A DNA stretch of 63,666 nucleotides, counting the filler, from Basidiobolus ranarum (lineage: Eukaryota): NCBI GenBank assembly GCA_040143965.1. It is 13 parts of 13 records of this genome, joined end to end, with 100 filler letters (N's around TTAATTAATTAA, not from the genome) between each part and the next. Parts side by side here need not be neighbours in the genome. Positions count along the whole stretch, not along the records: positions 9,847 to 14,667 come from JASJQH010001819.1; 12 more parts are not named here. One strand, 5' to 3'. Within the stretch, counting starts at the first letter, position 1; each line of letters begins with the position of its first letter. A program made the translations under genes and the position numbers. This document shows positions 1 to 34,806 of this stretch, in pieces. Under the pieces are notes generated by a model that was not told the origin of the DNA, made no database searches, and was given only the letters and a program-made list of their open reading frames with translations.

Positions 1-863
1 GTGGATCTGTATATCTGGTTCTGGAATACTCTGCCACTCCTGATGCAGATTGGGGAGGATACCTTGATGATATAAGTTTAGCTACTGGGTATACTTTCTC
101 TATGGTAATGGAGCCTTTACTTGGAATAGTAAGAAGCAACCAACCATAGCTCTTTCCACTACACAAGCAGAGTATATGGCTGCCTCTGTTACTACACAAG
201 AGGCTATGTAGTTAAGGAAGTTATTTACAGACTCAGGATACATGCAAAAACATGCAATTACTGTATTTCAAGATAATAAAAGTTGTATTTCATTAGCTAA
301 AAACTCAACACTTCATGCTTGAACAAAACATACAGATATCAGGGAGCATTGTGTTAGAGAAGCAATAGAGAATGATATAATTGAACTTGCCTATTGCCCT
401 ACTGAAGAAATGAATGCTGGCATCTACACCAAACCTTTAGCTGAAGCACAATTTGAATCGTAACATATGAGCTATGTCTAAGAGTACTTCAAAATGATAA
501 GTTGAGTGGAATTGTTGGAATTACATAAATAGCAACTCATTATTTCATAGTTAGTTGTTCATATTCAGATTATTTAGTACTCAATTCTGTCATTCAAAAA
601 TGTGCATTCATTGTACTAATTGATAGAAATATCAATTAGATTTCTTTTATCAATTTTCACCATTTTCCCAAAACTTCTCCAAATCACCTCAAATATTCAC
701 CCATGCTTAACAGGCATGTTTGTCATAATCTAAGCACATCCAATAGGTCTATTTCATAGTAAGCTATCAATAGGACATATTCAATTCAATAAAACTTGAT
801 TGTCTAATTCACAAATCCCAATCTTTTCCAAAACACTTCCAAGTCCCCTAAACACTTTTATTA
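1..863 (+). mobile_element. Ty1/Copia 3' end: degenerate RNase H, PPT and LTR (513-863)
   Basis: DADWGG...KKQPTIALSTTQAEYMA...TKHTDI RNase H motifs with stops. Purine tract GTTGAGTGGAA is followed by a TGTTG LTR homologous to 51304-51655 and 55465-55814. Confidence 0.9.
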
Positions 864-1700
864 GGATAATGAGTCTCTGTGCAATGCTCTTGAGTGAGTG
901 ATGATTCTGGTGATAGCTCCATCAATTGCTCCATTGAGTAACAGTATGCTTCCTGAGTTTTATTTCCCATTGTGCAGATATTCAGCAGTCTGTTGCAAAG
1001 TGGCCTCAGCTTCTTCAACCGAATAACTATCAGACTTTTGAAGAGTCTCAACAATGTTTAAGCCCTTCTTTCCTTCCTTTGGCTTACTCATTGGACAATA
1101 TCTATCACACTTTCCCTTCTTGTGGGATTTTAAGCACAATCATCCTTGTTTCCATTCATCAGTAGTGAGCTCTCTGAAAATGGAGCCATTCTCTATGGGA
1201 GGTCCTTCTTTTGGTCTCCCAGTGTGACTAGAGTATTTTCTGTCCTTCATAGAATATGATCTTTCCTGACAAGGTACTCATATAACCTACTAAGAGGAAA
1301 GTGTGAACACTATGTGACCTTCAATAGATAATGCTCGTAAAGCTATCATGAGACTTGGTAATACTCAGAATTCAAGCATCATTTGACTGCTAACTGAAAC
1401 TGTTGGATAACTGAGTTACAGTTAATTACTAGTACTGATCTTACTGGTCTGGATATAATAGCGATAAATAGATGGCTCCAGCATAGCATTAATGCTGAAT
1501 ATGGTATAACCTAACTAATGATTAAGCAGCTCTAAGCAGCAAGTTGAAATATGAAGTAGTGTCTTATGAAGGCTAACACAAAGTGTGCCATGGCTATCAG
1601 TGAGAGTTAGATTAGCCAAACTAACATGAAAGAGAAGTGTCTAATTGATATGTCACAAGTCAAGGAGTCAATTTATATGTGAGCGGCAATAAAAAAAATA

Positions 1701-2190
1701 TTGAATATTTATCACATCAAATTTCAAGAGGATTGGACAAACATCCTACCAGCTGGAGAAATAGATCATGCTATTACTATAGGAGACCATGAGCCTGTGA
1801 ACAACAGACCCTATCATATGAGTCCCTTGGAGTTACAAAGAGGAAAAGAGCACATTGACCTACTATTGGATCAAGGATATACCTGGCCAAGCAAGTCACC
1901 ATGGGTAGCTGCAGTCTATGTTGTCAAGCAGGAATGCAGAAACCTCCCAATATCTGTTGACTACAGAGCCTGGAATTCAATGAATGTCATCAATGAATAT
2001 ACTATCCCCAGCATAGAAAAGCCTCTGAGTCAACCTAATGGAGCCAAGACTTTTACCAAAAATGACTTAATGTCAAGCTATATGTAAATTCAAGTCAGAT
2101 AACTACATGTTTCCAAGGCCTACTCTTGGTCAAGATATAGACACCATAGCTATCTTGTCATGAGTCTTGCATTGATTAATGACCAGTTAC
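1701..2190 (+). mobile_element. Ty3/Gypsy reverse transcriptase N-terminal remnant
   Basis: DHAITIG..PVNNRPYHMSPLEL..PSKSPW..VYVVK..VDYRAWN..EYTIPSIE is the typical start of a Gypsy RT; the frame is broken. Confidence 0.85.
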
Positions 2191-2195
2191 ATTTG

Positions 2196-4824
2196 TAGAT
2201 AAACATGTTTGGGGGATTTGGAATTGTTTTAGATCTGATTTGATTTTGCAAAATAACCATTGAAGATTAATTTAGTAGAATTTGTCCTACTCATAGTTTT
2301 TTCAAATATTAGACTGTTGGATAAGTTTAGATCATAGAAAACATGCCTGTAAAGTATGTGTGAAAATATATGGTAATTTGAAGAGGTTACAAGAAAATAG
2401 TAAAGATTGGTAAAAGTGATCTATATGCTGTGTTCTAGCATGACTACAATGTTTCTGGCTGATAAAATGAAACTTTGCTTATCTTCAAATGTAGTGAAAT
2501 TGCATTTTTGCATGTATCATAAGTATGTAAGTTGCTTCCTTAACCACATAGCTTGTTGGGTAGTAGTGGAGGCTGCCATATACTTTGCTTCTCTAGTGGA
2601 CAGTGCTACCATTAGGTGCACTTGCTATTGCAACTTATAAATCCATTATAGTGGAAAAAGTGTACCCAGTGTTGATTTTCTATGGTCCAAACTAGCTCAA
2701 CTGTAGCTCTTGAATATCTGAATATATGTGGAATTGCCATTTGGGTTCAGTTCCAGGACTTCTGCATTTTCTGACAATACAGCCTTGACACAGTTGTTTA
2801 GACACATTCCCACAATTGTATACACTAAGCTGCCCACCATAAACCAACAGGGCCACTTTTGGCTTTGAGTTGAGTCATTTTGTTCTAAATTGAAGGAAAA
2901 TTTGATTGATTTCATGTTGAGATCTATTGGTGTTGCCACAGGCTTGATTTTCTCCAAATTGAAGTGCTTTAGAATGTTTTGGATGTATCTAGATCTATTC
3001 ATCATGTTTCCTGATCAGGTTTAGCACTCTCAATATGGATTCCAAGGAAATAACATAATTCACCTACATCAATTATCTGATATTGGTTTGATAAGCTGAA
3101 CTTTGTCCAATTGTGTACTTCTAGGTCCTTTCTAGCAATGATCAGGTCATCCACATATAGTACCAAAATATGTATTCAATTCCAAGCAGTTTGATAAACA
3201 TCCTTTAATCCACTGAGAATTCTTGGAATTCAGCAACTGAAAATGGATATCTATCATGTTGTTTGATGCTTTTGGTGCTTTCATGAGACCATGTAGCAGT
3301 ATTTGTAGCTAACATAACACACCAAGGATTTTTGAGTCAACAGATCTTTCTGTTATTTCTTGTTCCAGATTACCACTTGGAAAGTTGCTTTTAGATGCAT
3401 TTGAAGTAAATTTAGCTTACGGATAGCTGAGTGTGCTGGTATTATCTAATAGGGCTAAACTTGGCTAATGGAGCAAATGCTTTATCAAGTTCAACTTCTG
3501 GAGTTTAGGACAAGCCATTAGCTGCTGTTCTTGCTTTGTATCTTTCCGTAGTTTCATCAGCTTAGTTTTGACTTTGTGGAACAATTTGCAGCCTATTAGC
3601 TTTCCAACTGCTGGTAGGGAACTTGACACTCTGGTTTTACTGTCCTGTAGTAAGGAAATCTCTTCAGATGTTGCATTTCCCATAATTTTGAGTCAGGGGC
3701 TGCTTGACCTCAATCTAGTCTGTAGGTTGCTACATAATGTAGCAAAAGCATAGATATCATTATTGAAAGTGTTGCACCAGTTCCCTGGCTTGTTTCTCAT
3801 GGTGTGTGATGTTGGTAATCTTACATTGTTTTCTGATGTCATTGGGGCAGAATCTTGGGTTGAATTGGCATCATATACTGTGGGAATTTTTCAGACAACT
3901 TTGAAATAGTTCTAATTTTATTTTCTGGATCAAGAATGGTGATACAAGTTGAAAATTTTCTGTCATAAGAAATCACAGCTCTAAACTTGGTTTAGTTCAG
4001 ATTTTCATATCAAACAGTATGTAGGCTTGTGATCTAGTGGGGGTGGGTTTAAGCTGGATTCAGGAAAGAAGCTTTGCAACCAAAGAACCAAAGACACTCC
4101 ACACTTGATTTTGATCAATATATGAACTCAAATTGAGTACAATTTTGAAGCAAACCTGCTGGGCATCAGTGAAAAATAAAGACTGCAGTGGAGATACCCA
4201 GAGCCTGTTGTTAATCTAACTTCTACTCATTAAGTATTGCTCTTGCTATCATGATTACGGTCCAATTGGCACATTACACAGCCTTATTTTGGTGCAGAGT
4301 ACAGGGTGCAGTAATTTAGTATTTAAATGCATGCTTAGAAGCGATATTAGGAAAGTCTTGTGAGCATTATTCTGCATCATCAATTCTGCTAAGTATCATT
4401 ATTTTTTGTGCTGATATTTCCAAACCACTACTTAGTGGTGCCTGAATATAGCCACAGCTTCAAATTCTGAGCTCAGATGGAATACGTAAGTGTATTTTGC
4501 TTTGTCATCAATTAAGGTCATAATATTCATTTTGACATGCAGTGATATGTTTTTCATAGGTGCACATATATCATTAGGAGTCAGGGCCGCTTTCTGAGTT
4601 GATTTGATTTCTTCAAAGCTTGAAAACACCTGTCTGTGAAGCTTTTGATAGATACAACCAACACCCAGATTCAATTTAGTTAAATTTCCAATTATCCAGT
4701 CTGAAACAAGCAGATTTTAGATCTCTTGGGTTTTGTTCTCAATTCTGGTTTAATCCTCTAAGCCATGTTTGGCTGTTTATTTCACTAATTTTGGCCAAAT
4801 TTGCATGCCCAGAATTCACTTCGT
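2196..4824 (-). mobile_element. Degenerate Ty1/Copia (integrase, RT, RNase H, partial LTR at about 2196-2420)
   Basis: Minus-strand ORF fragments DICAPMKNIS..TLIDDKAKYTYVF, YIQNILKHFNLEKIKPVATP and MVGSLVY; reverse-complement LTR sequence at the left end. Confidence 0.85.
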
Positions 4825-4924: not shown

Positions 4925-5691
4925 TTTTACTCTTTTGGATGGTGGATCCAATCCTGATCAAATTGGTTTTATTTTTGTTAGGGGCCCCTACAACTTCTGC
5001 TCCAAGTTGTTTACTGATCCTCAAACAGTTTGTCTTTCCAGTTTTAGAATTTGGCTACCTCTTCTTTCTCTCGCTTCCAGGCACTTTGCCAAACTTGACA
5101 TATTTGTAGTTTGGTATATCACTTCCCTAGTTTCCCATCTGCCTGAGTGCCCTTAGAAACATGCCATCCTTATTGCCTTTGGATTACTTCCATATAGTCT
5201 TAGAATACTCTACCTGAAGACTAGACTGTTCATCAGTATTGGCAAAAGTTAGAACCCTCTGATTATGTCCTGGGGAGGTTCCCACCTCTCTGATCCTTCT
5301 TCTTGCTGGAGAATACTGCTAGGAGATCCTGATGTCAGGAAATTTGCTTCCTTTATAGACAATCTGAGAAGCCCTCCCTTGCCTACAAGGAATACATGGT
5401 GGATCTTTGGCCGCAATATCTTCAGAAACACACTCCCTTTATGCTTTATGTTACTCCTAGGCTCATCCCACTTATTTCTATTGCTGACAAACCATTTTTA
5501 CCTCATTTGCTCCCTCCCACTCCACTTGATAGTGTCTTAGACTCTACTGACTTAACTTTTTGACTTTGCAACATTCATACCAATACTCCAGAACTTCACA
5601 CTTTGATTAAGAAACTACAAAAGTAGTTATGGCTTCTTTCTTTTGTTTGAAATAACAATTTTACCTGTTGGTGACTGTCTCCCCTAACCCT
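4925..5691 (+). mobile_element. LINE (non-LTR) 3' fragment ending in a hairpin and CCCCTAACCCT
   Basis: Frameshifted translation KQFVFPVLEFG..AKLDIF..AFGLLPYSLRILYLKTRL..NPLI..SSCWRILLGDPDV aligns with the minus-strand LINE at 12984-13850. Terminal motif at 5651-5691. Confidence 0.7.
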
Positions 5692-8408
5692 ATGCACTAC
5701 AGAAGTAAACAAGTTTTTACAAAGATACTCACATTTGTACCATTCATTGAATGAGCTAAGATCATTGTAGTCCCTAAAAAATTAGGGGTGAAATATAAGG
5801 CATATGACAAGTGCTATGCATCTCAGAAGTAATAAGGTTTTTTAAGTTAGGTGGGTTTAGTTGTACACAATTCTTTTATTTATACAAGTCAGAATACCTT
5901 AGTTACAGGCATATTGTATGTCACTCCACTTTAAAAATTTGTAGCACCCTTGCATTACACAGGTTGGCTAGCCTGAAAGCCACTTTCACTAACCTCAGTG
6001 CATTTCTGTATATATGTGTACATATGTATAACTATGCAAATGATATATAACTACTTATACAGGATAAATTATTGCTGAATATTAGCAATCTGTTATTTAC
6101 TAGTTTCTATATTTCAGACTTATGCAACAATTGTGTTATTGACAATTTTTTTATGATCCCCTATTTACTTGCTTAATATACAAATTATAAATGTGTAATA
6201 TCCAAATATCAAGCAAAAGAAGAAGTCAATTAATAATAAAATTGGACATATTCAAAACTTTTGTGCATCTTAATGAGGACATATTTATTTTGTTGACTGT
6301 AAATTTGAAATCTAAATTTTAGCACTGATTACATAGGTTTATTTGTACAAGTGTTGCTAAGGACATGCTTATAGACTAGATGTATACAGAAATCTTATAG
6401 AAAAATTAAAAAAAAACTATAAAAGTAGGCAATGATTTTGCCACAGTATTATAAACACTATCTCTTATTCACATGAGTCAAAGGTCTTTAGAACTGGATA
6501 TCGCTGCAAATACTGCACCCAGCAATCAGATGTGCAACTATAACTCTAGCACAGGCCACCATTGCTTCACAATTTTTTCATACATTTAGTTGCAGCGCTA
6601 ATCACATTTACTGCAGTGTATAGTGAAAACATACTTGTTTCATCGGACCAGGTCTGATTGCATGGTGGAATCAGGTATGCTACTACCCTGTCTGACATGA
6701 TCCATGACCTACCCATAGCATTTTAAGTTCGAAATTTGGACAAGCACAGTTCTTCTAATACTAGTGCTACATATATCATGAACTCAGTGGGTATATACTT
6801 GTCACACTTCTTTCCTTTTATGCTGAGAGGACTGCATCCTTGGACTCTGTGCTTTCATTAATATCCCCTTTCCTCTTTGTGAGGACTTCAATACCCTCTT
6901 ACTTCCTTTCTTAAGTGCTTGCTAAAAATAAATTTTCTCAACGAATACATTGCTGGAGCACTTTCCAGCACGGATTTTGTACTTGTGTATTACCCCGTCA
7001 CAAAGCGATCCAAAAATAAGCACTCTGCCAAATATAGAATTCCAGTTGCAAGAGAAAGATGAAGCATCATACTCTATCAGATTCTATGCAGTGTTCGATC
7101 TGAAATAGCCCAAGATGCTGCTGGTTAGAGGCCCAAACCACTTGAAAGTAGAAATCTTTATAGCACTAATACTGGCTCTCCGTGAAAGTTGTTTATTGAA
7201 AAATCCTTCAAATGGCATCCTTGTTAGTATACTTTTGTATTTCCAAAGCATCCTGTGGGCAAGGCAACGAAAAATTACTTTAATACATGCTTGCTTCTCC
7301 AGCCTATGTTGCATAGGGTCACGATTCTAACTAGAGAACAAGACACAAAATCAAGGTGCCAACACCACCACCACCCCTTTTCGAAACCATCAGCTGATCC
7401 CCTTTACTGACAATTTGCAGGAATCCAAATAGAAACAGCCAAGTTTCTTTTTCATTAATCAAATGAGCTCTAAACAACCCTTTATATAATGGCATTCGAA
7501 AATAGAGCAGCAAAAGTTTGATTCGATGATAGATACTTGAAGCATACTACACTGCTAAGCATACAATATGGGCGAGCAGACGAACCATGAACCAATCTAC
7601 AAAAGTCTCAGAGAAACCAAGCAATATTGATGTCTAGTCTGGTGTAGACGACTAGTGATTTAGGGGCTGAGTTAGGCATACCGCTAGATCAGAGTCTCTA
7701 AGGCGAGTGTCACATATATTACTTCAGATCTTTGGGTACCTTGCCTTCAAACGCCCCCGGCAGAAAGCGGAGATATGCTTAAATTTCAGAAACTGAAACA
7801 AAGCACAAAAAACAAGGCGAACAAGGAAATCCCCGAGTGTATCTTGCAATCAAGAAGGTGCTCAGGTACCTGCCGGAGAATAGATTTGGATCATCTGTAT
7901 CAAGATGGCTTGGAATCATGACGTTGAGCGATGGAGTCAAGTCGTTGCAGATTCTGTAGGATTAGCTCCAAATGAAACTGAAAACCATTCCCAATTATCA
8001 ACACAATCATGATTCATTGCTACAAAAGAATCACTAAAGTTTCAAGTGAAGCAATTTCTTGCATGCGATTTAATCTTTCGTATGAGATTGTGCATTAACT
8101 GTAAACGATAAGGCATTAAGCCAGACCGCCGCCGCTTCTATCCACTTCCTTTACCCCAAATAATTTGTCTCTTAGCCAGTCATTCTTTGTCGGCTATTCA
8201 CACCTTCAGGCGAAAATAATCAATAGGCCTATTTATATATTAAAAGCACTTCTTCCTACTTGATTTATACTTTAGGAGGCACCATTACTATCGCAAAAGC
8301 TTTGAAGTCACCCTACTAGTCTGCCTAATCCGACATTGTTCAATATTCTTTAACTCAGGTCATACAGAGTTATTATACTTTCCTCAAAGATCTTCAGCCC
8401 GACCACAA

Positions 8409-9846: not shown

Positions 9847-11407
9847 GTTTTCCCACTACCATGGCTGATGACCTCTCCACACAGATTGCTACACGTTCAT
9901 CTGGTCGAACACCAAGCTCAATCAGCTGATGTGCAAGACAGTTAGCACGTTCATTTAGTTCTGCATAACTAAAACGCTGATCTCCATACATGAGTGCAGT
10001 AACTTCTGGGGTACGTACTACCTGCTTCTCAAAAAGATGGTGTATACACTGGTATTCAGGATATGGCATAGCGGTATCGTTTAAATCCATTAGTAAGCGA
10101 TAGCGCTCCTCGGTATCAATCATTTTCACTGCAGTTACTGGCTGTGAAGGATTTGTAGCGAGGGTATCTAAGAGAGTCAGTATACGACGTTGATGGGCAA
10201 CCAATTCATCGGCCGTGTATAGTATTGGATTTGCCACAAAGTCAATTCGTAAAGGACCATCACTATATCCAATATATATATTGATTGCCAGATCATCAAT
10301 GGGTCCAGTAAGGAGGTTGTGGGCTGTCGATAGATATTTTCCAAAGGATACATTACGGTCAAATGGCATAAAGTTGATTGTAGGTCCGTATAAGTGTTGG
10401 TTTCGCCCTAATCGAGGATTTCTCCTCAGTTCCTCACTTCGATAGCGTTGGTGTTTCAAACCTACTTGAATTTCTTGTGCTACCTGCTCTATCACTGATG
10501 AAAGGCTAATACCCGATTGAAAGGTGATTCGGATAGGAAGGACATTTGATGTTGTGCCAGGGACATTCCGAGCGTCACCAAAACGAGCCTTGACTGGGAA
10601 TCCTAACGTTATCTCCTCAATACCAGTCCAACGGTAAAGATATGTAGCTATTGCGGCAATTACAGCATAAGTGAAACGACGAAGATCAGAAGAAAGAGTG
10701 GAAGCTGACTGAGAGGAATAATGAATTGTCTGGCTTATAGGTAAGTGTACGGAAACCCCTTTTTTGCCAGTAAGCGTCGCAGGCTCTGGCCAATCCTTGC
10801 AGTGCTCAAGCCAATATTCCTGATCGTTGGTAAATTGTGAGGAATTACGATAATCTATATCACTCTGAAGAAGAACGGATAGTGGCTTCATTGAACATTT
10901 TGGTGCAGTGGTGCCCTCAACCAGAGAACTGTAAATTTGAGCTGCTCGTTGTAAAACAAGCACTGCACCATATCCATCAAATATAATATGATGGATGCAT
11001 TGATACCAAAGATATCTATGTGCTTCAACCTTCAGCAGAGCATATCTAAACTTCAAGCCATAGTGAAGATTTATGGGCTGCTCGTAGTCATTTCTCATCC
11101 AAGCTTCAGCGGCTTCTTGAGGATTAGCGTCAGTACTGACGTCGATCAAGGGCAATACCCAATTTAATGGACCGATAAACTGTTCTACGCCGTTTTCACC
11201 TTCTATGAATTGCAATCGCATGCATTCGGCTTCCATTAGTACTTGTGACAAAGCTTCCTTGAATAAAGTTGGAATTATGATGCCAGGTATTTCTATGAAC
11301 TGAGCAATATTGTAGATAGAGCTTTCAGGATTGAGTTGCTGTGCCAGCCATATTTCTATTTGCACAGCGGATAACGGATACATTATCGGGTGTGTGGAAG
11401 CAGTCAT
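9847..11407 (-). CDS. Bacterial-type NRPS, starter condensation domain plus start of adenylation domain; intronless, truncated by contig end
   Basis: PLSAVQIEIWLAQQLNPESSIYNIAQ, catalytic HHIIFDG, QRYRSEELRR, and A-domain start CIHHLFEKQV..TP..SYAELNERANCLAHQL..GVRPDERVAICVERS. ATG at 11407. Confidence 0.95.
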
Positions 11408-12283
11408 TTTCACTTGAGGATATCAACTATATGTCTAATGATTTTATAGAACAGCAGACCAAAGTTATAACTGTGATCAGTCTAGGGTAAATATTAAGTA
11501 TGAATCAAAATATGACAGTAAAGATGAGTGCCTACAGGTCTGGCTTTTCCAAATGTTCTAGCGTTGTGCTACAATGAACCAACAATCAATGGTGTGATGC
11601 TAATATTGAGCAGAGCTTTGACGATAAAATATGTATGTTGATGAAATTGACTGCAGATTACAATGTACGGGTAAGTGACTTAATATATGCTTTGAAAAGG
11701 TCTGTTAAACGCTGCATTGACTCAGTAAGTAGGATATGAATATGAGGCGTGATCTGGGGGAATTGAAACATTGACGCTCAGTAACATCATTGCATAGAGT
11801 TGCAGAGTGCATAACCAGCTAGTGTCAAGTTGGAGATTTCTGGTGATATGAAGATATGGATACATTTTTAACATGACAGAGCATGATTTCTGAAATGCTG
11901 AATTATCTCAGCAGCTCGTCTGGGGATGGGCTTTCTCTTTACATTACAATGTATCCATTGAAGATGATTCCAGTAGATGTTCCAGATTTTATTTAGGGGG
12001 TGAGTAGGGGGTATTATAAATCATTGGGTTGCAGTATTGTGGAACTACGATATCAAATCTTCCTGATATGCATGATAGTTTACCTCCTCTGTCACTGGTA
12101 GCTACAAATCGCACCCATGAAGTCTAATTTATATCAACACGATATTAAGGAGAGCCAAAGAGATTGTAGGTGCTTCTTCACGTGTCCATCATTTGGATAC
12201 AGCTCAGTAATGAAGAGAAGTACATGCCACAATATCACCAAGACAGGCATCAACAGGTACTTTTTAAGAATAGATGTGTATGG

Positions 12284-12440
12284 GCTAGGGTTAAGGGGAT
12301 GAAAAGCACCACTTGGCGTGAACTTTATTTAGCTTATATACTAATCTAAACAAAGTGACATTTAGGACATCAATCTCCTCACATATTGTGACAACTTAGG
12401 ATCATATCCATGCTTAACTTCCATCACTTACACCATGCTG
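12284..12440 (-). mobile_element. Short LINE 3' end, family A copy 1
   Basis: About 130 nt shared with 12984-13140 and 14492-14667; ends (element sense) ...TTTTCATCCCCTTAACCCTAGCCC. Confidence 0.75.
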
Positions 12441-12983
12441 CTCTTTTGGTAAGAGTGCTGAATTTTATCAATTTGATTGGTGAAAATGTATTAGGGTTAT
12501 AATCATTGCAGCAACAGTGCAATTTTCCTACTGCTTATACTGGGCTGATATTTTGGTAGGAGTGAAGAATATTAACTTGATTGGCCCACCTCTTTTATAA
12601 AACTGGTACTACACCGCTAACAAAAAGCACTTGTTCAACCTGAATTACCATGCCTCTGAGAGCTGGTGGATCTTCTTCCATTTTGACCATACTGTCCATG
12701 GTAGGACTAAGGCTGGAAATGGAGGAGACAATTGCAATGAAAATGGGGGCATTGGAGATGGTGCATACAACGCAGGTAAGGGTAGTACTGCAAATGGTGA
12801 TGGTAGCAGTGACTTTGCTGATGACAATAATGGAGATGGCACTCAGAATTCTGGAGAGAGTGGTTGTTGATGTGGTGCTGGAAGTGGTTGTTCTGGCAAG
12901 AGAGGAGATAATGGCAATGATATTGGTGGTGAAGGAGCCGGTTCTCATGATGCATGAAATAATTGAGAGAATGGAAATAGCAC

Positions 12984-13850
12984 TTAAGGGGATGAAAAAC
13001 ACCACATGGTGACGACTTTATTTAGCTTAAATACTAATCTAAACAAAGTGACAATCAAGACATGAATCTTTTGAGATATTGTGACAATACTGCATCATAT
13101 CCATACTTAATTTGATGACCAATGTATTTAAGTTCAGAGGATGTAAATATAGTGTTAAGGGGCAGAGGTAGAAAACAGAAAGGAATGTACTCAGTACAAA
13201 CTAGATGGACAATTGGACAAAAACCTGAAATAATGGGAATCAAGAAAGATGTCTTCAAAGCAAGGTATTGCTTCCAAAGGTCTAGTTGGAAGTCTATAGC
13301 AACAATTTTAGGCTGTTGTGTTTTGTGCAGCTGTAAAGCTAACTCAGAAACAACAGGATCATCTTGCATCAATTTCCAGCATGATAGTGCATTTGAAGAT
13401 GGTGTGGCTTGCAACTTCTTAATCAGTGGATTACTGCATTCACTTAGTTGGAGTAGAAATCTTGCCCTGAGTAAAACTACTCTAATATGATATGGGAAGA
13501 ATCCAAAAGTTCCATTCAGAGTATGATCATGGGGAGTCTCAGGCAAGTCAGGCATCCACAGCCTGAGTCAGTAGCATATGAATCTATCAAGCTTAGAGTA
13601 GTATCTTTGGTTGAGTGGGAGCAGATGTACTCCATATTCCAGAACTCATATCACAAATTGCTTGCAAAGTCTTTGACAGCCATGAAAAGATGTATTGGGT
13701 GGTGTAACAGCAAGTAACTTGTGAACAGCCTGTTTAGCCAAGGCAAATCTAACTGACAAGTGTTTCTTCACATCAATGCCAGTTTGATTAAATGGGAAGC
13801 CTAGACATGTTGCATGTGGCTCATATGAAGTAGCTAAGTATCATACAAGG
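12984..13850 (-). mobile_element. LINE 3' fragment (RT thumb/C-terminal region), family A copy 2
   Basis: CLGFPFNQTGIDVKKHLSVRFALAKQ..KQFVI*VLEYG..KLDRF..LRLWMPDLPETP..FGFFPYHIRVVLLRARFL resembles the post-RT YLG...P.LEYG region of non-LTR elements. Confidence 0.8.
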
Positions 13851-13854
13851 AAAT

Positions 13855-14490
13855 GGTTAGGGGGGGATGAAAAGCACAAGGTGTAATCTTTATTTATCTC
13901 AAGTTGTACAACACAAATAAATAAAGAAGCCAAGAGAAAGTAAAAGTCTAAGGTTAATCTGACTAAGATCAATTTAGTGCAGCTTCCCAAACCTGTTCAT
14001 ATAAGACAAAAGTTTGGGGATGGATAACCTTAGCTTGGGAAATGTAGAAGTCTTTCATAAATTTTGTAACAAGTGGAGAGGGGGAGTTTCTTAGAAGTGA
14101 AGTAAATCTTTTAAGCAGAGTGTCCTTGCTGTGTCCAAGAGAAAAGTGGATAAAAAGTCTCAAACTTTACTGAACCAAAGAAACAGTTAAGTGCAGAATC
14201 TTAGAACTGTTTATGAAGGATATATCAGCAGAGCAGATCTGACTAATATATGTCTTGGGAATAGCAGTGGGTTGCTATGCTACGGCAGAGAGTAGGTTTG
14301 CTAGGCAGCTAGGCTTGGTGTTCTGCAAGTGCTAGTGGATACTAGGCTTGGATAGATATGAGAGGGGAATATTGACTTTGTTGAGAAACACTGAAGTGTT
14401 GAGATCCTATATTCATTGAGACATATGCTAAACCAAAAGGTTCAGTTAGCTTTATTTATACTTTATGATAGCAGAGTGAATTAGTCAGCA
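13855..14490 (-). mobile_element. Probable LINE 3' fragment of a second family sharing the same terminal motif
   Basis: The body differs from family A (LPSKPTLC-like C-terminal segment) but ends AATAAAGATTACACCTTGTGCTTTTCATCCCCCCCTAACC. Confidence 0.55.
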
Positions 14491-14491
14491 C

Positions 14492-14667
14492 TTAGGGGGG
14501 GGATGAAAAGCACCAGATGGTGTAGACTTTATTTAGCTCAAATACTAATCTAAACAAAGTGACAATCAAGAAATCAATCTTTTAAGATATTGTGACAATA
14601 CTGGATCATATCCATACTTAACCTGATGACCAATGTAATCAAGCTCAGAGGATGTAAATATAGTGTT
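14492..14667 (-). mobile_element. LINE 3' end, family A copy 3 (cut by contig end)
   Basis: Closely similar to 12984-13155; terminal motif CACCATCTGGTGCTTTTCATCCCCCCCCTAA. Confidence 0.8.
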
Positions 14668-20162: not shown

Positions 20163-20630
20163 TTAATTGTATTGCCGACCAGAACGAAAATGACTCTGTT
20201 GACCATTTCTGCGGGAGATTCCTTTTTCATATTCGTTATCGTACTTGTCTTGTTCGTATTGACGGCCATAGTGAGAGTGAAGATAGTTTCGTTGATCATT
20301 TCTGTCGGAGATGCTGCGTTCATATTTGTTAACATACTCATCTTGTTCGTATTGACGACCATAACTAGAACAAGAATAGTTCAACTGACCATTTCTGCGA
20401 GACACACCACGTTCATATTCGTTATCATACTTGTCTTATTCGCGTTAACGACTATAGCGAGAGTGAGGATAGTTTTGTTGACCATTTCTACCAGAGAAAC
20501 CGTGATAGTATTCGTTATCGTAATCATCTTGCTCCTATTGACGTCCATAATGAGAGTTCTTTTGCTGACCACTTCTGCGAGTCGAGCCTCCTTTGAAGCG
20601 GCTTTGTGATCGAGGTTAGTTGGAGGGCAT
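20163..20630 (-). pseudogene. Pseudogenised Q/N/Y/R-rich protein built from 93-bp (31-aa) tandem repeats
   Basis: ATG at 20630 with TATAAAA about 75 nt upstream. Repeat anchors at 20201, 20294, 20387, 20480 and 20567; consensus SRRNGQQNYxHSxYGRQYEQDKYDNEYExGI. Four in-frame stops. Confidence 0.7.
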
Positions 20631-21799
20631 GTTAGAAATATTGGTTCTACCGGTTATCAAATGAATTAATATTCAAGTATAGTGCTCTATTTACTTGCTG
20701 CTCCATTTTATAACAAGAAGTGGCTTAGAAGACTGACACGTGAAGGCTAAGCTACCATCTTGATGGATTACTCCTAGGGCAATACCCAATAATTCCATAA
20801 AATGTTTAGTATATTCTGGTATGGATGATTCAAATATCTCCCCAATAGTAGATATTGCGCATAAGATTGGTTGGAATACTACATAGATTGAGAGTAATCT
20901 GTAGGATAATAGTGTTGCCCTTCATAGGTCTGATTAGAACCTTGGGGCCAGGCACTTGCTACAGTAGCTGTAACCCTAAGGAAAATTGCGCTCTTACCAT
21001 GTGCAATGCGCTCTTACCGGAATGGCACTAAGGCGTCTTGACTAATCAAATCACTAAGATTCTGCACTCTTACCAAGAGAGCAGCCTGGCATAGGTAGTA
21101 GGAGACCTAAATTCTGAAGAGGCTTACTAATAAGAACCGAGTGTCTTTTGATGTTTTAAGGATAGAGAAACAAGGCAAATGGGCATGACCTATGATTACA
21201 AATGTACCAATTCGGTAATTGTATATGTTTTTCCTTTAATCAGGTTTTTTAAGCTTAATCGCCTCTTCGCCTTTAATCTTAAGAGAGCGGGGCAAAATCG
21301 TATCATTGGATGCGAGTAACCTACTAGTGTTTCTAGTTGCATATATATTGTTACTTATGATAATCAACCAGTGCCTTGATTCTTAAAGGCTTTATAAGGA
21401 GCACTAAGCAACTTTAGAACAATATATGAGCTCATTGCTAGGGCTTTCAATAGCAAATAACGCACTATCTTCATTGGACAGCAATTATATTCCCAGCTAG
21501 AAACTGTTCATTCCCTTTCATACATCAGTATTGTGCATAAAGTGGCTTTTAATCACTCCTGATGGTAAAGCTCCACTGAGGTCCACTTGACATGATATAC
21601 CCCTTAAGATTTTCCTGATTTCTGAGCTTTTCATTGAGCTTTTGCCAGCCGTAGTGGTATTCTGGAGTTGACTATATATTAGACGTTCTTATCTCCTAGT
21701 TTGATTGATGAAATAGTACCTTTTGTTCAACAATGACTTGAGCGTAGCTGGTTAAGTAGTTGCTCTTACCTGCTACACTACAGAAGTCTCAGTCTGAGA

Positions 21800-22450
21800 A
21801 AATGCAATCCTATGCGTGGTTGGTGGTGCAGCAAATAGGGTTAGGGTTATACCAAATATCACAAAGAATCAGCTCACCCAGAAGCATGCTAGGCTAATTC
21901 AAGAAGGACAGCCTACTCTTTTTGCAACTATGGCTTTTACTTACAACCAAGCAGTACTGGAGATCACCGAGATTCCCCACAGCAAAGAGCCAACGTATTC
22001 CTTTACAAAGATCAATATCCTTTTGCATGACTATCAAGAACTATTGTGAAGGTTGTGGCAGTGCCATATAATACTGACTATTTGATGGTTAAGGCAAATC
22101 ATGTCCTAGGGTATGTACCTGTCACTTCTCTTGCCCAACTGAGGGCAGGGTTTCGTACTATCAAGAGTGACTACACTCCTGTGTTCGAGGACTCCCTGAT
22201 GTGATATTCAGCTGGTCTTGCCATGGCAGGATCTATTCCATACTATGGAAACTCAATATGCTATATGTAGGGATTAATCCTTTGGGAGGGAAAATATGTC
22301 TATATTTCTCGTGAGCACCTCTGCCTATAGACTTAAATACATGGCAGTCATATCGACTAGTATTTGATTTCAGTCATTAATAGATGTATAAAGTACGGAG
22401 CTTTTGTACGAACTACCACTTCAAGATGCTTGTGATTCTTCCATCACACT
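21800..22450 (+). pseudogene. Decayed ORF, possibly an endogenised negative-strand RNA virus nucleoprotein
   Basis: The frame from 22082 reads LMVKANHVLGYVPVTSLAQLRAGF..PVFEDSLM*YSAGLAMAGSIPYYG..KYVYISREHL. Resemblance to chuvirus-type N core is from memory only. Confidence 0.35.
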
Positions 22451-29505: not shown

Positions 29506-29703
29506 TACTCCTTCTGGCATTTATCCTCCTCCTAACCCTTATTAGCAGGGATATTATTACACCTTAGGACTCTTTAGGAAGCTTCATTATAACAACTGCC
29601 CAACTTGATGCTGTGAATGTTACGTTTGGAGTTTGCTTTTCTATTGGGTATGTTGCTTAACTGGTAAATAAATATTACATCTGGTGCATTTCATCCCCCT
29701 AAC
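29506..29703 (+). mobile_element. Element 3' end carrying the shared hairpin/CCCCCTAAC terminal motif
   Basis: AAATAAATATTACATCTGGTGCATTTCATCCCCCTAAC at 29666-29703. Confidence 0.6.
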
Positions 29704-30095
29704 AGCAGCAACTACCATCTGATTTCAACTCGCTGTACTGTTCACATGGTCATATAAAATCATGGATCACCAAGAAATCAAAATTATCCAGTATATGACC
29801 ATTTCTCCGAGATTTGAGTCAAACAAGTCATTCTTGTGCACCTATCTCAAACTCTCCTGGAATGATGCGGTCAATGCTAATCAGGAAGAGCGCTTGACAT
29901 AGGGGCCCAGCATGAATTCATATTAGCATATGACAAAGGAAAGATGAACATGATGAAACAGAGCACCTCAAGCAATCTGCAACATGACAAGAAGTGTAAC
30001 TCTCATTTGTATATAAAGGCAAACATGAGAACTAATTTAGCAAGCACTACTCAAGTGAACCATCACAATATTACACAATATATCCAGTTATCACC

Positions 30096-31910
30096 ATGCT
30101 ACATGAGCTTTCACCCGTTAAATTGCCGTTGGTAAAGAGCGATAAAGGAAGTCACTCTCAAGGTGGTACACATAATCATCGCATCAAGGACGCACGAGAT
30201 GTGCTGCACGATGTTGCTATTATGATTGAGTATGGAGGTAGTGACGTGGAAGAATTTCTCGAGCTTATATATTCATATTATAGCAATGCCATTCAGGAAG
30301 TAACATATGTATCAAAAAGTGGCCTTATCGGTGATATCGAGAGTACAACTTATTTAAATGATATCAAAGTGGATATATGGGGACTAGACAACATCTTGAG
30401 CAAGCATATCGCGGAACGATGGTTTGCCCGGGACAAAGCTACTCACAAATGGGGGTCAGCAGGACAATGGTCCAGCTGGATTATGTATGCAAACTCACTG
30501 TCACCACAGGCGACAAGGGAGCAAGTGGAGGATATAGCGACATTGTGGTGCTACTATTGCGTTGCCATGGAGAATGTTAATGGGAGCCCGGAGGTACTCA
30601 AACTAGCTCAATCGGATATTGGTTACATTAATGTCCGTGATCGGATGGGGGCTACAATGACCGATCTGACCAAGTACGAGCGAGCGGTCAATATTATGGT
30701 TCACAATGGTACACGTACACACAAAGCGTTTGGACGGAGTGGAGCAGTGGATTTAATTGGGATACCGACGAACTGCAACCAGGCTCTAGTACGTCGCGCA
30801 ATTGACGTTGGGGTACATTTTGTATCAATGGAGTGTGTTTGGATAGGAACACATGCACGTGTAGTTACGGCTGATGCGCAGCGGGGCATTCTTTGGTCCT
30901 TATGGCAGGACATTCAGTCAATAGGTAAGGAGGTAGTGAGTGACGAATGGGAAGGAATTTCGGTTGCATTCTGTGCAGTACGGGGTCTTCCATTGGACAT
31001 AGGGATAAACACATACACCCGGAACGTCAGTGCACTTACATCACGATTGCTGGTTGACAAATTGGCGCGTGTAGAGGGAATTGCAACATATTCAATCAAC
31101 ATAAACTGTGCTAGTTTTCTTGTCTCACGATATAGACTAATGGGCTCATGGTATGCACTTAGTAGCAGTAAGAATCCCGGGGATCGCAGAGCGGCACGAG
31201 AAGTAATAGACCCAAGTGATATGTGGACGGCCGATACGCCATGTCTCTGTAGCTGGAAGGATTACAACTGTCTCTTTGATACGATGTGTTTACACACAGA
31301 TTCAGGTATAAATCAACTTCGTAAATCCTACGGAGACGAAATAATATGGTGGGCAGCTCGCTTAGCAACATTTGATGTTGGTGTTGAAGAGGCCTGTTGG
31401 CGTGTAAAGCGGATCAAAGCACTAATATGTGGTCACACCGCCTCAACAGAGGGAGTAGCACATAACAATGTTAGTAATCTGGGTGGCCTTCAACGGCAGA
31501 GCGAGTTTGAAGTACTTGTACGAAGAATACTGGCGGTCAAATTAACATTTGACTGGCATGTGATAGCGTTTTGCACAATAGGAAGGAATGAGGATGATTT
31601 TGACTCGGTGATGTGCGATATTACCACTTGTCTGAGGATATCTGACTGCTTTATACTAGATAATCAACTTGGCAATTACCAAGATTTTGACGTTCTGTAC
31701 ACTTTTTATCGTGCTGTTCAAGGTGACTTTGAGAACGAGGTTTTGCACCTGACTCAGCAGGTTGCCAGATACACCGGAACAAAGTTTGAATGGCACAGCC
31801 CAGGGATTGCGTCAGCGAGTATCATATGTGCACTCCAGTCGCCCAGGCGTGGACTTAGGCGGGAGATAGTAGACGAACAAGTACCGGTACCAGGTGAAGC
31901 TAACATTTAG
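30096..31910 (+). CDS. Intact intronless 604-aa protein; candidate non-canonical class I terpene-synthase-fold protein with an internal duplication
   Basis: Long open frame, TATATAAA at about 30010 and AATAAA downstream. Motif order SPQATREQV..LWCYYCVAMEN / RRAIDVGV / QDIQSIGKE / SRYR. The ORF is well supported; the function is inferred. Confidence 0.6.
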   Translation: MLHELSPVKLPLVKSDKGSHSQGGTHNHRIKDARDVLHDVAIMIEYGGSDVEEFLELIYSYYSNAIQEVTYVSKSGLIGDIESTTYLNDIKVDIWGLDNILSKHIAERWFARDKATHKWGSAGQWSSWIMYANSLSPQATREQVEDIATLWCYYCVAMENVNGSPEVLKLAQSDIGYINVRDRMGATMTDLTKYERAVNIMVHNGTRTHKAFGRSGAVDLIGIPTNCNQALVRRAIDVGVHFVSMECVWIGTHARVVTADAQRGILWSLWQDIQSIGKEVVSDEWEGISVAFCAVRGLPLDIGINTYTRNVSALTSRLLVDKLARVEGIATYSININCASFLVSRYRLMGSWYALSSSKNPGDRRAAREVIDPSDMWTADTPCLCSWKDYNCLFDTMCLHTDSGINQLRKSYGDEIIWWAARLATFDVGVEEACWRVKRIKALICGHTASTEGVAHNNVSNLGGLQRQSEFEVLVRRILAVKLTFDWHVIAFCTIGRNEDDFDSVMCDITTCLRISDCFILDNQLGNYQDFDVLYTFYRAVQGDFENEVLHLTQQVARYTGTKFEWHSPGIASASIICALQSPRRGLRREIVDEQVPVPGEANI

Positions 31911-32298
31911 GTAAATATGCTGTCCGCCTTTGACTACCCAGTTAGATCAAAATTAAATAGAGCAGTCGTACGCTATGTGCAGTCAGTCCGCCTCGTCTTA
32001 GTGTGAGAGAGCAGTCAGGAGGGGTGATTGGGCTAGACGCGAATACTAGGATTCTGTAATAGAGTTTAACAATAAAGATGCATGCTATGTACAAATAACT
32101 TTATTCCTACTTTCCCACCTATAAAAAGGTAATACACAACCAATATATATATATATAGTCTCAGGGTTTATGTTGAATCAGGATAGATCACAAAAAATGG
32201 GGATTAGAGATAGATAGGGTTAGGATATCCTAATAAATATTTAGCAGTTATCCTTCTAGATATTTTCATTTCGCTTTAATCTTGAGGATAAATCGAGC

Positions 32299-32369
32299 GT
32301 GCATCTTTAAAACAGTGCATCTTTAAAACAGTGCATCTTTAAAACAGTACATCTTTAAAACAGTGCATC
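32299..32369. repeat. 16-bp minisatellite (GTGCATCTTTAAAACA) x about 4.4
   Basis: Direct tandem copies visible between the converging 604-aa ORF and the P450. Confidence 0.95.
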
Positions 32370-32593
32370 AATCATATATTGTATAGGAACTATTCAAACG
32401 GCGCTAGGAAGTGACAGCTCAGGAAGGAGGTTCATCTTACTTCTCCAGAGTATCTCTAAGGTCAAATTCATCCATTAAATAATCATTGTTTATTATAAGG
32501 TATAACCCATCTTTTTCAACACTATATATCAATAACCTGACCATTAACCAGACATTAACCACACCCGGTTAAGTTTAGTTAAAAGAAACATCA

Positions 32594-34240
32594 TCACTTG
32601 CTCAACTTTCTGTAATTGATTCCAAGGTTTCTCGGATTTGATACTAGTGATGAGCCAAATAGTAATCTCTCGTTGTGGGGACTATCATTGGGAAGAGAAA
32701 AGTGGTATGTTCGAACTGGAAAAGATGTAACAAATATTTAGTAGAGTTGAATGGGTAGCTTATGAGAAGCACATACCTAGCATTGAGATCACTATTTTCA
32801 TCTCGGTGAGTGCAAAACCCTTGGCGATACCTACGCAATTTAGTCAGTTAGTTCTGAGTGGATTGACATTCTCCTGTCTTACTTACACATTCGTGAGCCA
32901 TTAGTAAAAGGATTCCATGCTGGAGGATCACGAATAAGTCCCTCAGTAGTCAACCATCTATCTGGATCAAGCTTGGTTGGGTTTTCCCAATATTTTTCAT
33001 CGCGATGCAAGGCATATATGTTCAAAGTAACCAGGCTCCCTTTAGGAATCGGCATCTGGCCAAGCATAGTATCATGAGCAGTCGTACGCGTTGGTAACAA
33101 AGGGGCGGGGGGATATAGCCGCATTGTTTCTTTAATTGTAGCTTCCAGGTACCACAATGCTGGTACAACAATGATTAAGTTGGGTTGAGTTGATAGTGAT
33201 ACGTATACAAATAATACCTTTGATTTCAGCTGTAGAAGGGATATCCATTGAAGAAGTGTGCAATGAGAACTCGCGGTTCGCTTCTTCCCGAACTTTCGCT
33301 TGAATCTCTGGGTGAGTAGCCAATACGTAGATGACACTTGTCAAAGCGGAAGCTGTTGTGTCTTTTGACTTGTTATTAGCATGATCTATTTGTTTATATT
33401 GAAGAGAAATCATTTGTTACCATGACCGCTGAGAATGAGAGTAACTAACTCGTCCTATAGTAAACCCGTAGTTAGATTACGAGTCTCAGTCTTGGGAATT
33501 TATCAATGACTTACGAGCAATTCTTCAATGGTTAGTTTTTCATCTAACCAAGCCCTAACGAGAACCGATAGGATATCTTGTGGTTTATCCCCATCACCAC
33601 ATGATTGCTGAATGGATTTTGCTTTGGCAGTTGCTAGGGTACCCAGCCAACTTCGGAACTTCCCAACAGCTTGATGTTCTTTAGATCTCTTTCCAACCGG
33701 AAAGCGATCCAGGATTGGGAATGCTATATAAAGTGAATCGAGGGCGGCATTATGAGCGGTGTAGTAAGTAGTAACATGTTCGCTTTCAGGGTGGCGAAGA
33801 GCCTAAAACAGGTATCGATGGATATGTAAGCCCGATATTTCTTGTAAGTTTTAATGACTATATAAGCTTATTACTTGAAAGTCGAAGCCAAACAGAGTAT
33901 TTCCCAGAATATCCAGCGTTAATCTTAGTAGTAATTTTAATGGAGAGTGTGGCTCAGAATAAGCAGTAAAATAGCATGACTTACAATTGCATGGTGTAGA
34001 ATAGATCTGGAATCGAACCCTCAGTGTCCAGAAGACCGATATACTCACGTACTACCTCAGCAAATTTGCCAGGTTCCCATCCCAAGTGAAATAAAGGACC
34101 AATGATCTCTCGACGCTTCTTCCAATCCTATAATATATATAATATAATAGTAACAACACCATTAATATTGGCTACATCGAAATGAGCAGCATTTCCATTG
34201 AATCTAACCGCGCTGTTACTGGATAAAGGAAAGATTAGAA
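32594..34240 (-). CDS. Cytochrome P450, multi-exon; N-terminus missing at contig end
   Basis: DWKKRR C-helix, LILSGH|DTTASAL I-helix, KETMR (ExxR), DPDRW (PERF), heme motif FTNGSRMC|IAKGFA; stop at 32594. Confidence 0.96.
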
Positions 34241-34404
34241 TGACAACAACAGCAGGTGATTGTGTGGAAAGATTAGAATGACAACAACAGCAGGTGATTG
34301 TGTGNNNNNNNNNNNNNNNNNNNNNNNNNNNNNNNNNNNNNNNNNNNNTTAATTAATTAANNNNNNNNNNNNNNNNNNNNNNNNNNNNNNNNNNNNNNNN
34401 NNNN

Positions 34405-34668
34405 TCACTAGGAACACTCTACTCTTGGCTCCATCCATTCTGGAAAACTCTACTTAGGCCCCATCCCTTCTGGAATACTCTACACTTGGCTCCATCCTAT
34501 CTGGAATACTCTTAGGCCTAGCTTACTAGGAAACTCAGCTTTGTCAACTTCTTGACTATATCTTTGAATATTATATTCTAACTTGGCTTATTTATTTATT
34601 GACTTTGTTTAAATTGATAAATAAATATTACACCATCTGGTGCTTTTCATCCCCCTAACCCTAACCCT
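34405..34668 (+). mobile_element. Element 3' end with degenerate ~30-bp tandem repeats and the shared hairpin plus (CCCTAA)2 tail
   Basis: Repeats of GGAATACTCTAC..TTGGCTCCATCC at 34405-34530; terminal AATAAATATTACACCATCTGGTGCTTTTCATCCCCCTAACCCTAACCCT. Confidence 0.65.
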
Positions 34669-34806
34669 CAGTATCTCAGTAACCAGTACCATGACCTATA
34701 ACCACCATGCATACTTCAATTCCCTTTACTCCACATTTCACCCCTTTAAGTTCCCAAGTTCCCAGTTTGGTGTCAATAATTAAGTTGAAATTTAACAAAG
34801 TGTAAA

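Follow-up and report, generated by a model that had tools for sequence, protein, structure and literature searches.

A conserved 3'-terminal module with telomere-like tails on LINE fragments of Basidiobolus ranarum

We analysed a stretch of DNA from the fungus Basidiobolus ranarum (GenBank assembly GCA_040143965.1) that comprises 63,666 nucleotides (nt) including filler, and that is hereafter called the window. It consists of 13 separate contigs of 4,788-4,824 base pairs (bp), ordered by length and joined by spacers of the form N44-TTAATTAATTAA-N44. The contig at positions 9847-14667 begins with the N-terminal part of a gene for a nonribosomal peptide synthetase (NRPS), and about 860 nt from the 5' end of this gene lies the first of four co-oriented copies (A to D) of a conserved module. 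Three further copies (E, F and the diverged G) are located elsewhere, which places seven copies on four of the 13 contigs. The module is 45-60 nt long and consists of AAATAA, a small hairpin, CTTTTCAT, a run of C residues and T(T)AA. Judging from their sequences, the copies are the 3' ends of retrotransposons that lack long terminal repeats (non-LTR elements), also called long interspersed elements (LINEs), and they represent at least two diverged families, namely that of copies B and D and that of copy G. A third type of 3' untranslated region (UTR) is probably represented by copies C, E and F. The analysis is based on the 62 kb of window DNA and on protein databases, and the coordinates of the copies and of adjacent segments are collected in Table 1.

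A recurrent 3' module on LINE sequences

The first-pass annotation of this DNA had reported a terminal motif that occurs four times in the same orientation within 12284-14667, and the tails of copies A to D confirm this observation. Its recurrence on other contigs (29703 and 34668) and in a diverged form (5692) is likewise borne out, both by reading of the sequence and by a profile search. In its minus-strand reading, the module runs as AAATAAAG, a spacing of 6-9 nt, CACCatctGGTG, CTTTTCAT, C(4-8) and T(T)AA, and the AAATAA element is unchanged in all seven copies.

The motif is real and non-random. A 14-mer search that allowed up to two mismatches gave seven matches in the window against 0.52 expected, a count reached by none of 100 shuffled sequences; six of these matches are copies A to F, and the seventh (59254) is unrelated. 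The hairpin 12-mer gave five matches against 0.15 expected, three of which are module copies, while the two at 49161 and 53840 were rejected as copies on finding that they are part of another repeat. A profile derived from all seven copies recovers just those seven with E-values of 4e-19 to 3e-11, as is ensured by its construction, and the next best match has an E-value of 1.2. Copies are also unevenly distributed, with four in 2.4 kb of the array contig and three in the remaining 57 kb. Metagenome, prokaryote-genome and viral collections were scanned for exact 22-mers, with no match in any of the three.

Homology to the C-terminus of a LINE ORF2 protein was placed by tblastn and by a hidden Markov model (HMM) of the family directly upstream of the module, and in the same orientation, in copies B, D and G only. 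Because these ORF2 C-termini could be located, B/D and G can be recognized as two diverged families, which are about 40% identical to each other in this region. This agrees with the original proposal that two of the element bodies carry the C-terminal peptide of a LINE reverse transcriptase (RT), found here in B/D (13058-13840 and 14569-14667, minus strand) and in G (4926-5623, plus strand). The module is conserved across families between whose bodies no nucleotide similarity could be detected, and the earlier claim that different LINEs end in one 3' module with a telomere-like tail holds for two ORF2 families described by a single profile.

The ORF2 C-terminus of copy B occupies a single frame with two in-frame stops. 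It matches residues 638-889 of a related protein of 890 amino acids (aa), P0001, with 47% identity (tblastn, E = 1e-60), and its three open reading frame (ORF) pieces score E-values of 2.8e-72, 1.8e-19 and 3.6e-05 by hmmsearch. Copy B is thus 5'-truncated, as it begins at approximately residue 638 of ORF2. Copies D and B agree at 90% of positions along 181 nt that begin at 14487 and 12979, respectively, and the ORF2 piece of D matches the family HMM with an E-value of 4.5e-04. Copy G matches residues 437-659 of a second protein, P0003, with 71-76% identity, and its pieces have hmmsearch E-values of 1.8e-24 to 0.035. Copy A shares 83% identity with B across 130 nt and 84% with D across 124 nt. 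Among the copies of the probable third type, C shares 77% identity with F across 103 nt and 89% with E across 35 nt, and E shares 82% with F across 65 nt. Profile E-values are 3.4e-17 for A, 2.3e-15 for C, 3.1e-15 for E, 1.3e-16 for F and 2.7e-11 for G.

Relatives of these proteins are few. A 170-aa ORF upstream of the B module (13058-13567, minus strand) has no Pfam match, and a word-based search for longer relatives of it returned nothing, whereas phmmer retrieved four proteins among 1.84 billion representative proteins. P0001 is matched by this ORF through its C-terminal residues 721-887 (44% identity, E = 1.8e-34). An Atlas search for look-alikes of the same ORF was uninformative, its best cluster with a family assignment being zf-RVT (28% of members, score 0.88), which we treat as a lead only. 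The close family comprises five Basidiobolus-type proteins that are 44-50% identical to P0001, one of them named from B. meristosporus. All matches outside this family are at most 34% identical to P0001, and the only names among these neighbours are automatically assigned 'jockey-like' ones. A protein-guided search for loci in metagenomes with four full-length proteins yielded 23 loci, all of them distant LINEs with 20-40% identity, and neither the module nor a CCCTAA dimer is present in any of the 23.

The RT domain itself lies outside the window, but is evident in the relatives, where RVT_1 is matched in P0001 (E = 3.5e-22) and P0003 (E = 1.6e-24); the best solved relative is the RT of human L1 ORF2p (E = 1e-20). 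P0001 also matches Exo_endo_phos_2 with 27.5 bits against a cutoff of 27.4. Two further proteins, P0005 and P0006, combine RVT_1 with sub-threshold Exo_endo_phos matches that cover profile positions 121-225 and 141-225 of 225, and the motifs GD(L/F)N and SDH are aligned in P0001, P0005 and P0006. These features point to a remnant of an endonuclease of the apurinic/apyrimidinic (APE) type.

Not all copies are attached to a recognizable element. The proposal that at least four different bodies precede the module was not confirmed, given that A, C, E and F are element-like over only 65-137 nt and that the remaining DNA matches neither the LINE profile nor its counterparts at other copies. The segments X1 and X2 and the DNA upstream of E and F were accordingly rejected as element bodies, as they display no similarity to each other or to LINE bodies and no protein-profile match. 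X1 is without a match to the family protein profile, to Pfam or to the nucleotides of other bodies. ORFs of low complexity occur in it, as does a stretch of 52 nt that matches 21038-21089. For X2, the best E-value with the family profile is 11, and no similarity to other segments was found. An Rfam scan revealed no tRNA, 5S or 7SL match beside any copy that could represent the head of a short interspersed element (SINE).

Table 1. Positions of the module copies, the segments between them and the adjacent host gene in the window
Feature	Position	Strand	Tail position	Description	C-run and following bases
NRPS N-terminal part (host gene)	9848..11422	-		Pfam Condensation 2.4e-52, AMP-binding (adenylation start) 6.6e-14	
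Copy A	12279..12420	-	12284 (12284-12298)	~137 nt at the 3' end of a family-1-like LINE, with the final ~18 codons, 3' UTR and module	CCCC, then TTAA-CCCTAG-CCCATA (three degenerate telomere-like units)
X1	12421..12983	.		DNA between B tail and copy A; not recognizably LINE	
Copy B	12984..13854	-	12984	5'-truncated family-1 LINE; ORF2 C-terminus 13058-13840; 3' UTR and module 12984-13057	CCCC, then TTAA-GTGCT
Copy C	13855..13952	-	13855	3' module, probably third type, most similar to F and E; tail abuts 5' end of B	CCCCCCC, then TAA-CCATTT
X2	13953..14491	.		DNA between D tail and copy C; not recognizably LINE	
Copy D	14492..14667	-	14492	Family-1 LINE 3' end, runs off contig	Tail CCCCCCCC-TAA; after C-run TAA-GTGCT
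Copy E	29627..29703	+	29703	3' module at start of contig 29506-34304, then unique DNA with 624-aa ORF and P450 fragment	CCCCC, then TAA-CAGCAG
Copy F	34562..34668	+	34668	3' module at start of contig 34405-39202	Tail CCCCC-TAACCCTAACCCT; after C-run TAA-CCCTAA-CCCT
Copy G	4925..5693	+	5692	Family-2 LINE; frameshifted ORF2 C-terminus 4926-5623, then diverged module	Tail CCCC-TAACCCTAT; after C-run TAA-CCCTAT (two units)

Telomere-like tails, hairpin and stacking

The sequences that follow the C-run resemble the C-strand of TTAGGG, the telomere repeat assumed for Basidiobolus as for fungi in general. Tails comprise 1 to 2.7 CCCTAA-like units, and the C-runs vary from 4 to 8 residues. The longest perfect tail is that of copy F, for which two full CCCTAA units had been proposed within 34619-34668; TRF assigns a period of 6 and 2.7 copies to 34653-34668, or (CCCTAA)2.7. 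Three of the seven tails continue with TAACCCTA(A/G/T) and thereby agree with five or six of the six bases of the telomere unit that would follow, an outcome whose probability by chance we calculated by hand as ~4e-6 for three or more of seven tails. No poly(A) is present at any of the seven ends, and no conserved recognition sequence follows TAA across the seven copies. The variable lengths of tail and C-run are the behaviour of a retroelement tail rather than that of a precise transposon terminus.

If the copies arose through target-primed reverse transcription, the 3' ends of the primers can be deduced as GGG for F and G, GGGC or GGG for A, GG for C, G for E and AGCAC for B and D. G or C is the final base of six of the seven deduced ends (GGG, GG, G or GGGC), and from these seven junctions we infer that the primers are compatible with pairing over a few bases to a (CCCUAA)n RNA end. 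Copies B and D share five bases past the tail (AGCAC on the plus strand, at 12979-12983 and 14487-14491), beyond which their DNA is unrelated. These bases, GTGCT in the sense of the element, could be part of the 3' end of a subfamily, a transduced stub or a target preference.

Telomere-like sequence also occurs apart from the module. A stretch of ~2.3 units, TAGGGTTAGGGTTA, is found at 21836-21849 (plus strand), where it is not joined to a module, and similar sequences are present inside X1 (TTAGGGTTA, at 12491) and at 11993 (TTTAGGGGG). We considered whether the three sites mark a second type of element ending in TATAACCCTAA, and rejected this candidate since pairwise local alignments of the DNA at 12491, 21836 and 11993 were no better than those of shuffled sequences.

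Within the module, 27 of the 28 cells of a 4-bp stem form pairs in the seven-copy alignment, a count for which the shuffle control was uninformative. The three substitutions observed (A to G in copy A, C to U in copy E and C to U in copy G) all create G.U pairs on the sense strand, and the same changes would be A.C mismatches on the opposite strand. It is plausible that the hairpin forms in the sense-strand RNA.

The array had also been described as a stack in which the tail of one copy abuts the 5'-truncated end of the next, at both 13855 and 14492. This description stands for the first position and is not borne out for the second. The tail of copy C (CCCCCCCTAACC) ends at 13855 and the ORF2 homology of copy B reaches approximately 13850, such that 13852-13855 is a genuine joint between a tail and a 5'-truncated LINE. 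It is the only proven one of the three internal junctions, as the D tail meets the non-LINE-like X2 and the B tail meets X1, and neither of these is a proven stack. An annotated protein of B. meristosporus, K493DRAFT_348252 (P0002), suggests that stacking occurs in a second species. This protein contains at least two co-oriented ORF2 fragments, of which the first reaches the end of ORF2 (P0003 residues 255-663) and the truncated second starts one residue later (P0003 residues 319-592). P0004 is also a chimera of co-oriented ORF2 fragments, with an unrelated RT-like N-terminus of 77 aa. An implication for annotation is that some Basidiobolus 'hypothetical proteins', P0002 among them, are chimeric products of stacked LINE fragments.

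Origin of the copies and of their tails

We consider it probable (at roughly 0.6) that the module belongs to a 'stringent' LINE lineage resembling UnaL2 of eel, in which a conserved 3' tail would be recognized by the RT and a terminal repeat would serve as the site where the RT starts. The copies would then be mutated and mostly severely 5'-truncated examples of APE-type LINEs specific to Basidiobolus, with recognition and priming proposed by analogy. The RNA is expected to retain at its 3' end AAAUAA, the 4-bp hairpin, CUUUUCAU, a C-run and U(U)AA, followed by a variable CCCUAA-like stub. The ORF2 protein may recognize this tail of its own RNA and begin reverse transcription inside the short terminal repeat, where the 3' end of a nicked DNA would prime by pairing over a few bases. 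Variable start points and slippage could generate tails of 1 to 2.7 units, and new copies that land at or beside older tails could build the co-oriented clusters and the stack of C onto B. The elements would lie scattered between ordinary genes and would not be restricted to chromosome ends, given that four of 13 effectively random contigs are occupied. Four of the 26 contig ends in the window lie inside the element, and such running-off by four copies is as expected of a high-copy repeat.

The resemblance to UnaL2 lies in the anatomy of the tail. The RT of the Basidiobolus family is at most 34% identical to any protein from outside this genus. For the experimentally studied UnaL2, PMC1636434 describes a conserved 3' tail of ~60 nt that is common to different elements and consists of a stem-loop and (UGUAA)n, and it places the initiation of reverse transcription in this repeat, with a slippage that is reminiscent of telomerase. 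Like UnaL2 and zebrafish ZfL2 of the L2 clade, the Basidiobolus elements combine a conserved tail of about that length that is common to different elements, a putative stem-loop, a variable terminal repeat, 5'-truncated copies and a protein with an RT and a putative APE-type endonuclease. They differ in that their repeat is the canonical hexamer of the telomere C-strand instead of UGUAA, in that their hairpin is much smaller (4 bp) and in that their host is an early-diverging fungus.

Several observations weigh against this assignment. The window contains neither a full-length element nor an insertion that displays both of its junctions, and A, C, E and F are perhaps non-autonomous elements, or else copies of very limited length. 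The hairpin stem has just 4 bp and exhibits zero compensatory double changes, and the fold energies of the modules are indistinguishable from those of shuffled sequences (z from -2.05 to +0.23). Following TAA, copies B and D have GTGCT and no further telomere-like bases. The models of P0001, P0005 and P0006 begin inside the endonuclease domain and lack its N-terminal half, and thus an endonuclease-defective lineage is possible. The hint of stacking from P0002 derives from a spliced gene model and not from DNA. Finally, the junction displayed by all four copies at contig ends is the 3' one, and a 5' junction with unique DNA was not seen. This last pattern fits terminal addition weakly, and the view is biased because the 3' module is the part of the element with the highest copy number.

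An alternative that we judge unlikely is that the elements are site-specific LINEs, whose endonuclease or priming step, or both, targets TTAGGG-like sequence wherever it occurs, and that the telomere-like bases are target DNA rather than a templated tail. Telomeres would be targets, and so would telomere-like sites at interstitial positions and the tails that older copies carry, in a manner comparable to TRAS, SART and Tx1-1_ACar. Such targeting would account for the continuation of three of the seven copies into TAACCCTA, for the four co-oriented copies in 2.4 kb and for the position of B at the tail of C. The relatives carry an APE-type domain, as do TRAS and SART, which PMC10088271 describes as telomere-repeat insertions of the R1 clade. 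The sense strand also runs into the C-strand repeat with the same polarity as that reported for FoTeR in PMC12857005. However, no flank exceeds 2.7 units, and in E, B and D a single unit is followed by unrelated sequence. The absence of poly(A) and of a conserved recognition sequence after TAA in the seven copies also speaks against targeting of this kind.

TRAS/SART-type elements have poly(A) tails and use long telomeric arrays as insertion sites, and Zepp clusters are formed by nesting of 5'-truncated copies. The Basidiobolus copies have a conserved non-poly(A) terminal module in place of poly(A), and no long array is present at their 3' flanks. They are nonetheless similar to TRAS and SART of insects, Tx1-1_ACar of anole and Zepp of Chlorella in being LINEs tied to telomeric repeats or to telomere-proximal clusters (PMC10088271). 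The MoTeR, FoTeR and Cnl1 elements of the CRE clade are, according to PMC12857005, fungal non-LTR elements whose sense strand also runs into TAACCC and whose truncated copies keep the 3' repeat. They have a restriction-enzyme-like endonuclease, a strictly terminal location and 3-7 flanking repeats, the last number being given for FoTeR in PMC12857005. In Basidiobolus, by contrast, the endonuclease remnant is of the APE type and N-terminal, the flanks contain 1-2.7 units and the setting appears dispersed. The ~250 aa C-terminal to the RT, where the CRE-clade endonuclease would lie, are without any Pfam match in P0001, P0003, P0005 and P0006, and three or more perfect telomere units after the 3' end are found in none of the seven copies (maximum 2.7).

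A second alternative, which we regard as quite unlikely, is that a Basidiobolus LINE has converged on devices of Athena, Coprina and telomerase, such that the RT reiterates a C-strand template onto G-rich or TTAGGG 3' ends and thereby caps or heals them in addition to making internal insertions. Athena and Coprina are endonuclease-deficient Penelope-like elements, and they resemble the present copies in having reverse-complement telomeric repeats at the 3' end. Co-oriented arrays and a polarity compatible with annealing to G-rich overhangs are further points in common (PMC8557442). Unlike these elements, however, the Basidiobolus family has an RT of the LINE type, with L1 ORF2p as its nearest solved relative, and a partial EEP/APE domain upstream of it, while its copies lie beside ordinary genes on many contigs and are without a hammerhead ribozyme motif. 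A Penelope-like identity was itself rejected on the basis of the LINE-type RT, the EEP matches upstream of RVT_1 and the lack of a hammerhead. Were convergence to have occurred, such elements could have stabilized chromosome fragments and shaped the karyotype, and a fossil of such an end would be preserved in the cluster next to the NRPS gene.

The first-pass annotation had favoured a model that we find very doubtful. In this model, RNA ending in CCCUAA anneals to G-strand overhangs or breaks and is added head-to-tail in an endonuclease-free manner, and the array at 12284-14667 is a present or former chromosome end beside the NRPS gene. Read on the plus strand, the copies do begin with TTAGGG..., unique DNA lies on their left side and the element bodies lie on their right, no target-site duplication is apparent by eye at A or B, and the four contig-end copies present 3' junctions only. 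Precedent is provided by Athena and Coprina, for which PMC8557442 states that reverse-complement telomeric repeats at the 3' end permit attachment to overhangs. Chromosome ends may also be numerous, as small chromosomes numbering from 60 to many hundreds are reported for B. ranarum, together with a haploid genome of 350 Mb (PMC3281927).

Against this model, three relatives keep an endonuclease remnant with aligned GD(L/F)N and SDH motifs, and because they carry this partial APE-type domain, free ends would not be required. Occupancy of four of 13 random contigs is far above the supply of chromosome ends, even with 60 to many hundreds of chromosomes, and dispersal is therefore implied. Ordinary genes lie within 0.1-0.9 kb of copies (the U1 small nuclear RNA (snRNA) gene, the ORF with the P450 fragment and the NRPS gene), and only one tail-to-body joint is proven among the three internal junctions. 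None of the contig ends in the window carries a telomere array. When all of the window was compared with Rfam at E-values up to 1, four matches resulted, to U1, to a tRNA and to two families that are weakly matched and unrelated, with no hammerhead ribozyme among them and no other Rfam family at the module. Priming on TTAGGG ends, telomere extension and break healing are consequently disfavoured by the APE remnant of the relatives, by flanks of no more than 2.7 units and by the presence of copies on four of 13 contigs. The subtelomeric setting that had been proposed for the NRPS, P450 and lipase genes is not upheld either, as no contig end is telomeric and the copies are dispersed; we consider a subtelomeric label for these contigs unwarranted on present evidence.

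It is most improbable that the array is in part an assembly artefact, in which a short-read assembler would have threaded a high-copy repeat of 50-180 nt and joined pieces that are not neighbours. The assembly is fragmented (13 contigs of 4.79-4.82 kb, with four ends inside the repeat), and every junction of the array is located at a module copy. However, the array modules are not collapsed identical repeats, since B and D are 90% and A and B 83% identical, and C is similar over only 46 nt. The junction between the C tail and B ORF2 lies outside the common module, and P0002 suggests similar stacking in a 176 kb contig of another species. Chimerism could alter the order of the pieces, but it cannot create the C-tail/B-ORF2 junction.

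We give next to no credence to the reading of the module as the end of a DNA transposon, be it the terminal inverted repeat (TIR; TAGGGATGAAA) of an Ac-like hAT element, to whose Ac version TAGGGG(G)ATGAAAAG bears a resemblance, or a Helitron 3' end with a hairpin and CTRR, which CTAA fits in five of the seven copies with a small hairpin upstream; it is refuted for B, D and G by the co-oriented LINE ORF2 C-termini directly upstream, and is opposed more generally by C-runs and tails of variable length, unlike a precise terminus, by a following base that is C in five copies, G in two and in none the T that Helitron insertion requires, and by a TTAA terminus in two of the seven. Paired hAT termini, which the first-pass annotation had itself named as evidence that would count against it, were sought with the profile and are excluded, as no inverted partner of the module exists on either strand of any contig, with the proviso that the bodies of E, F and G run off their contigs. 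Module-adjacent ORFs have no Pfam match, the neighbouring ORF being that of LINE ORF2, and no transposase or Rep/helicase match was found among the ORFs.

The element described here appears to be a high-copy and lineage-restricted LINE that probably adds to the Basidiobolus genome, which is large and assembled poorly, and interrupts assemblies of it. Its tail unit is the canonical telomere repeat, which makes it a natural test case for how a LINE RT chooses and reiterates its 3' template. If the bolder reading were true, it would represent an APE-type LINE with a telomere-directed lifestyle in an early-diverging fungus, a lifestyle for which CRE-clade and Coprina elements are so far the only fungal examples in the literature searched. 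Literature searches, assessed mainly from listings, returned no description of Basidiobolus LINEs or telomeres, and no fungal APE-type LINE with a templated telomere-repeat tail.

Neighbouring genes and other repeats

The gene content of the window (NRPS, P450, aspartyl protease, class-3 lipase and copia-type elements) fits a fungus. A complete U1 snRNA gene (34806-34967, minus strand; 104 bits, E = 3.6e-25) is located 138 nt downstream of the tail of copy F, and a tRNA gene (37137-37208, minus strand) follows 2.5 kb beyond it. Just upstream of the module of copy F, at the start of the contig, a 31-nt unit is repeated 3.3 times with 83% matches (34411-34512, plus strand). The uninterrupted 624-aa ORF beyond copy E (30036-31907, plus strand), which the first-pass annotation had called terpene-synthase-like, has no Pfam match at an E-value of 0.01 or lower, and it adjoins the P450 fragment (32882-33340, minus strand).

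Several other repeats are present in the window. An inverted repeat of 470 nt, with arms at 40248-40717 and 42394-42863 that are 92% complementary and flank 1,676 nt, is perhaps a foldback element or a DNA transposon with long TIRs. Diverged copies of a copia-type LTR retrotransposon (gag, Pol_BBD and SH3_retrovirus), which are 62-90% identical, occur on contigs 49095-53888, 53989-58778 and 1-4824. A repeat of ~90 nt with ACACCATCTG is inverted at both ends of contig 49095-53888. Finally, a tandem repeat with a 93-nt period (20178-20549, plus strand) comprises three in-register copies of 186 nt that are 70-76% identical, and it lies inside a 177-aa ORF without a Pfam match.

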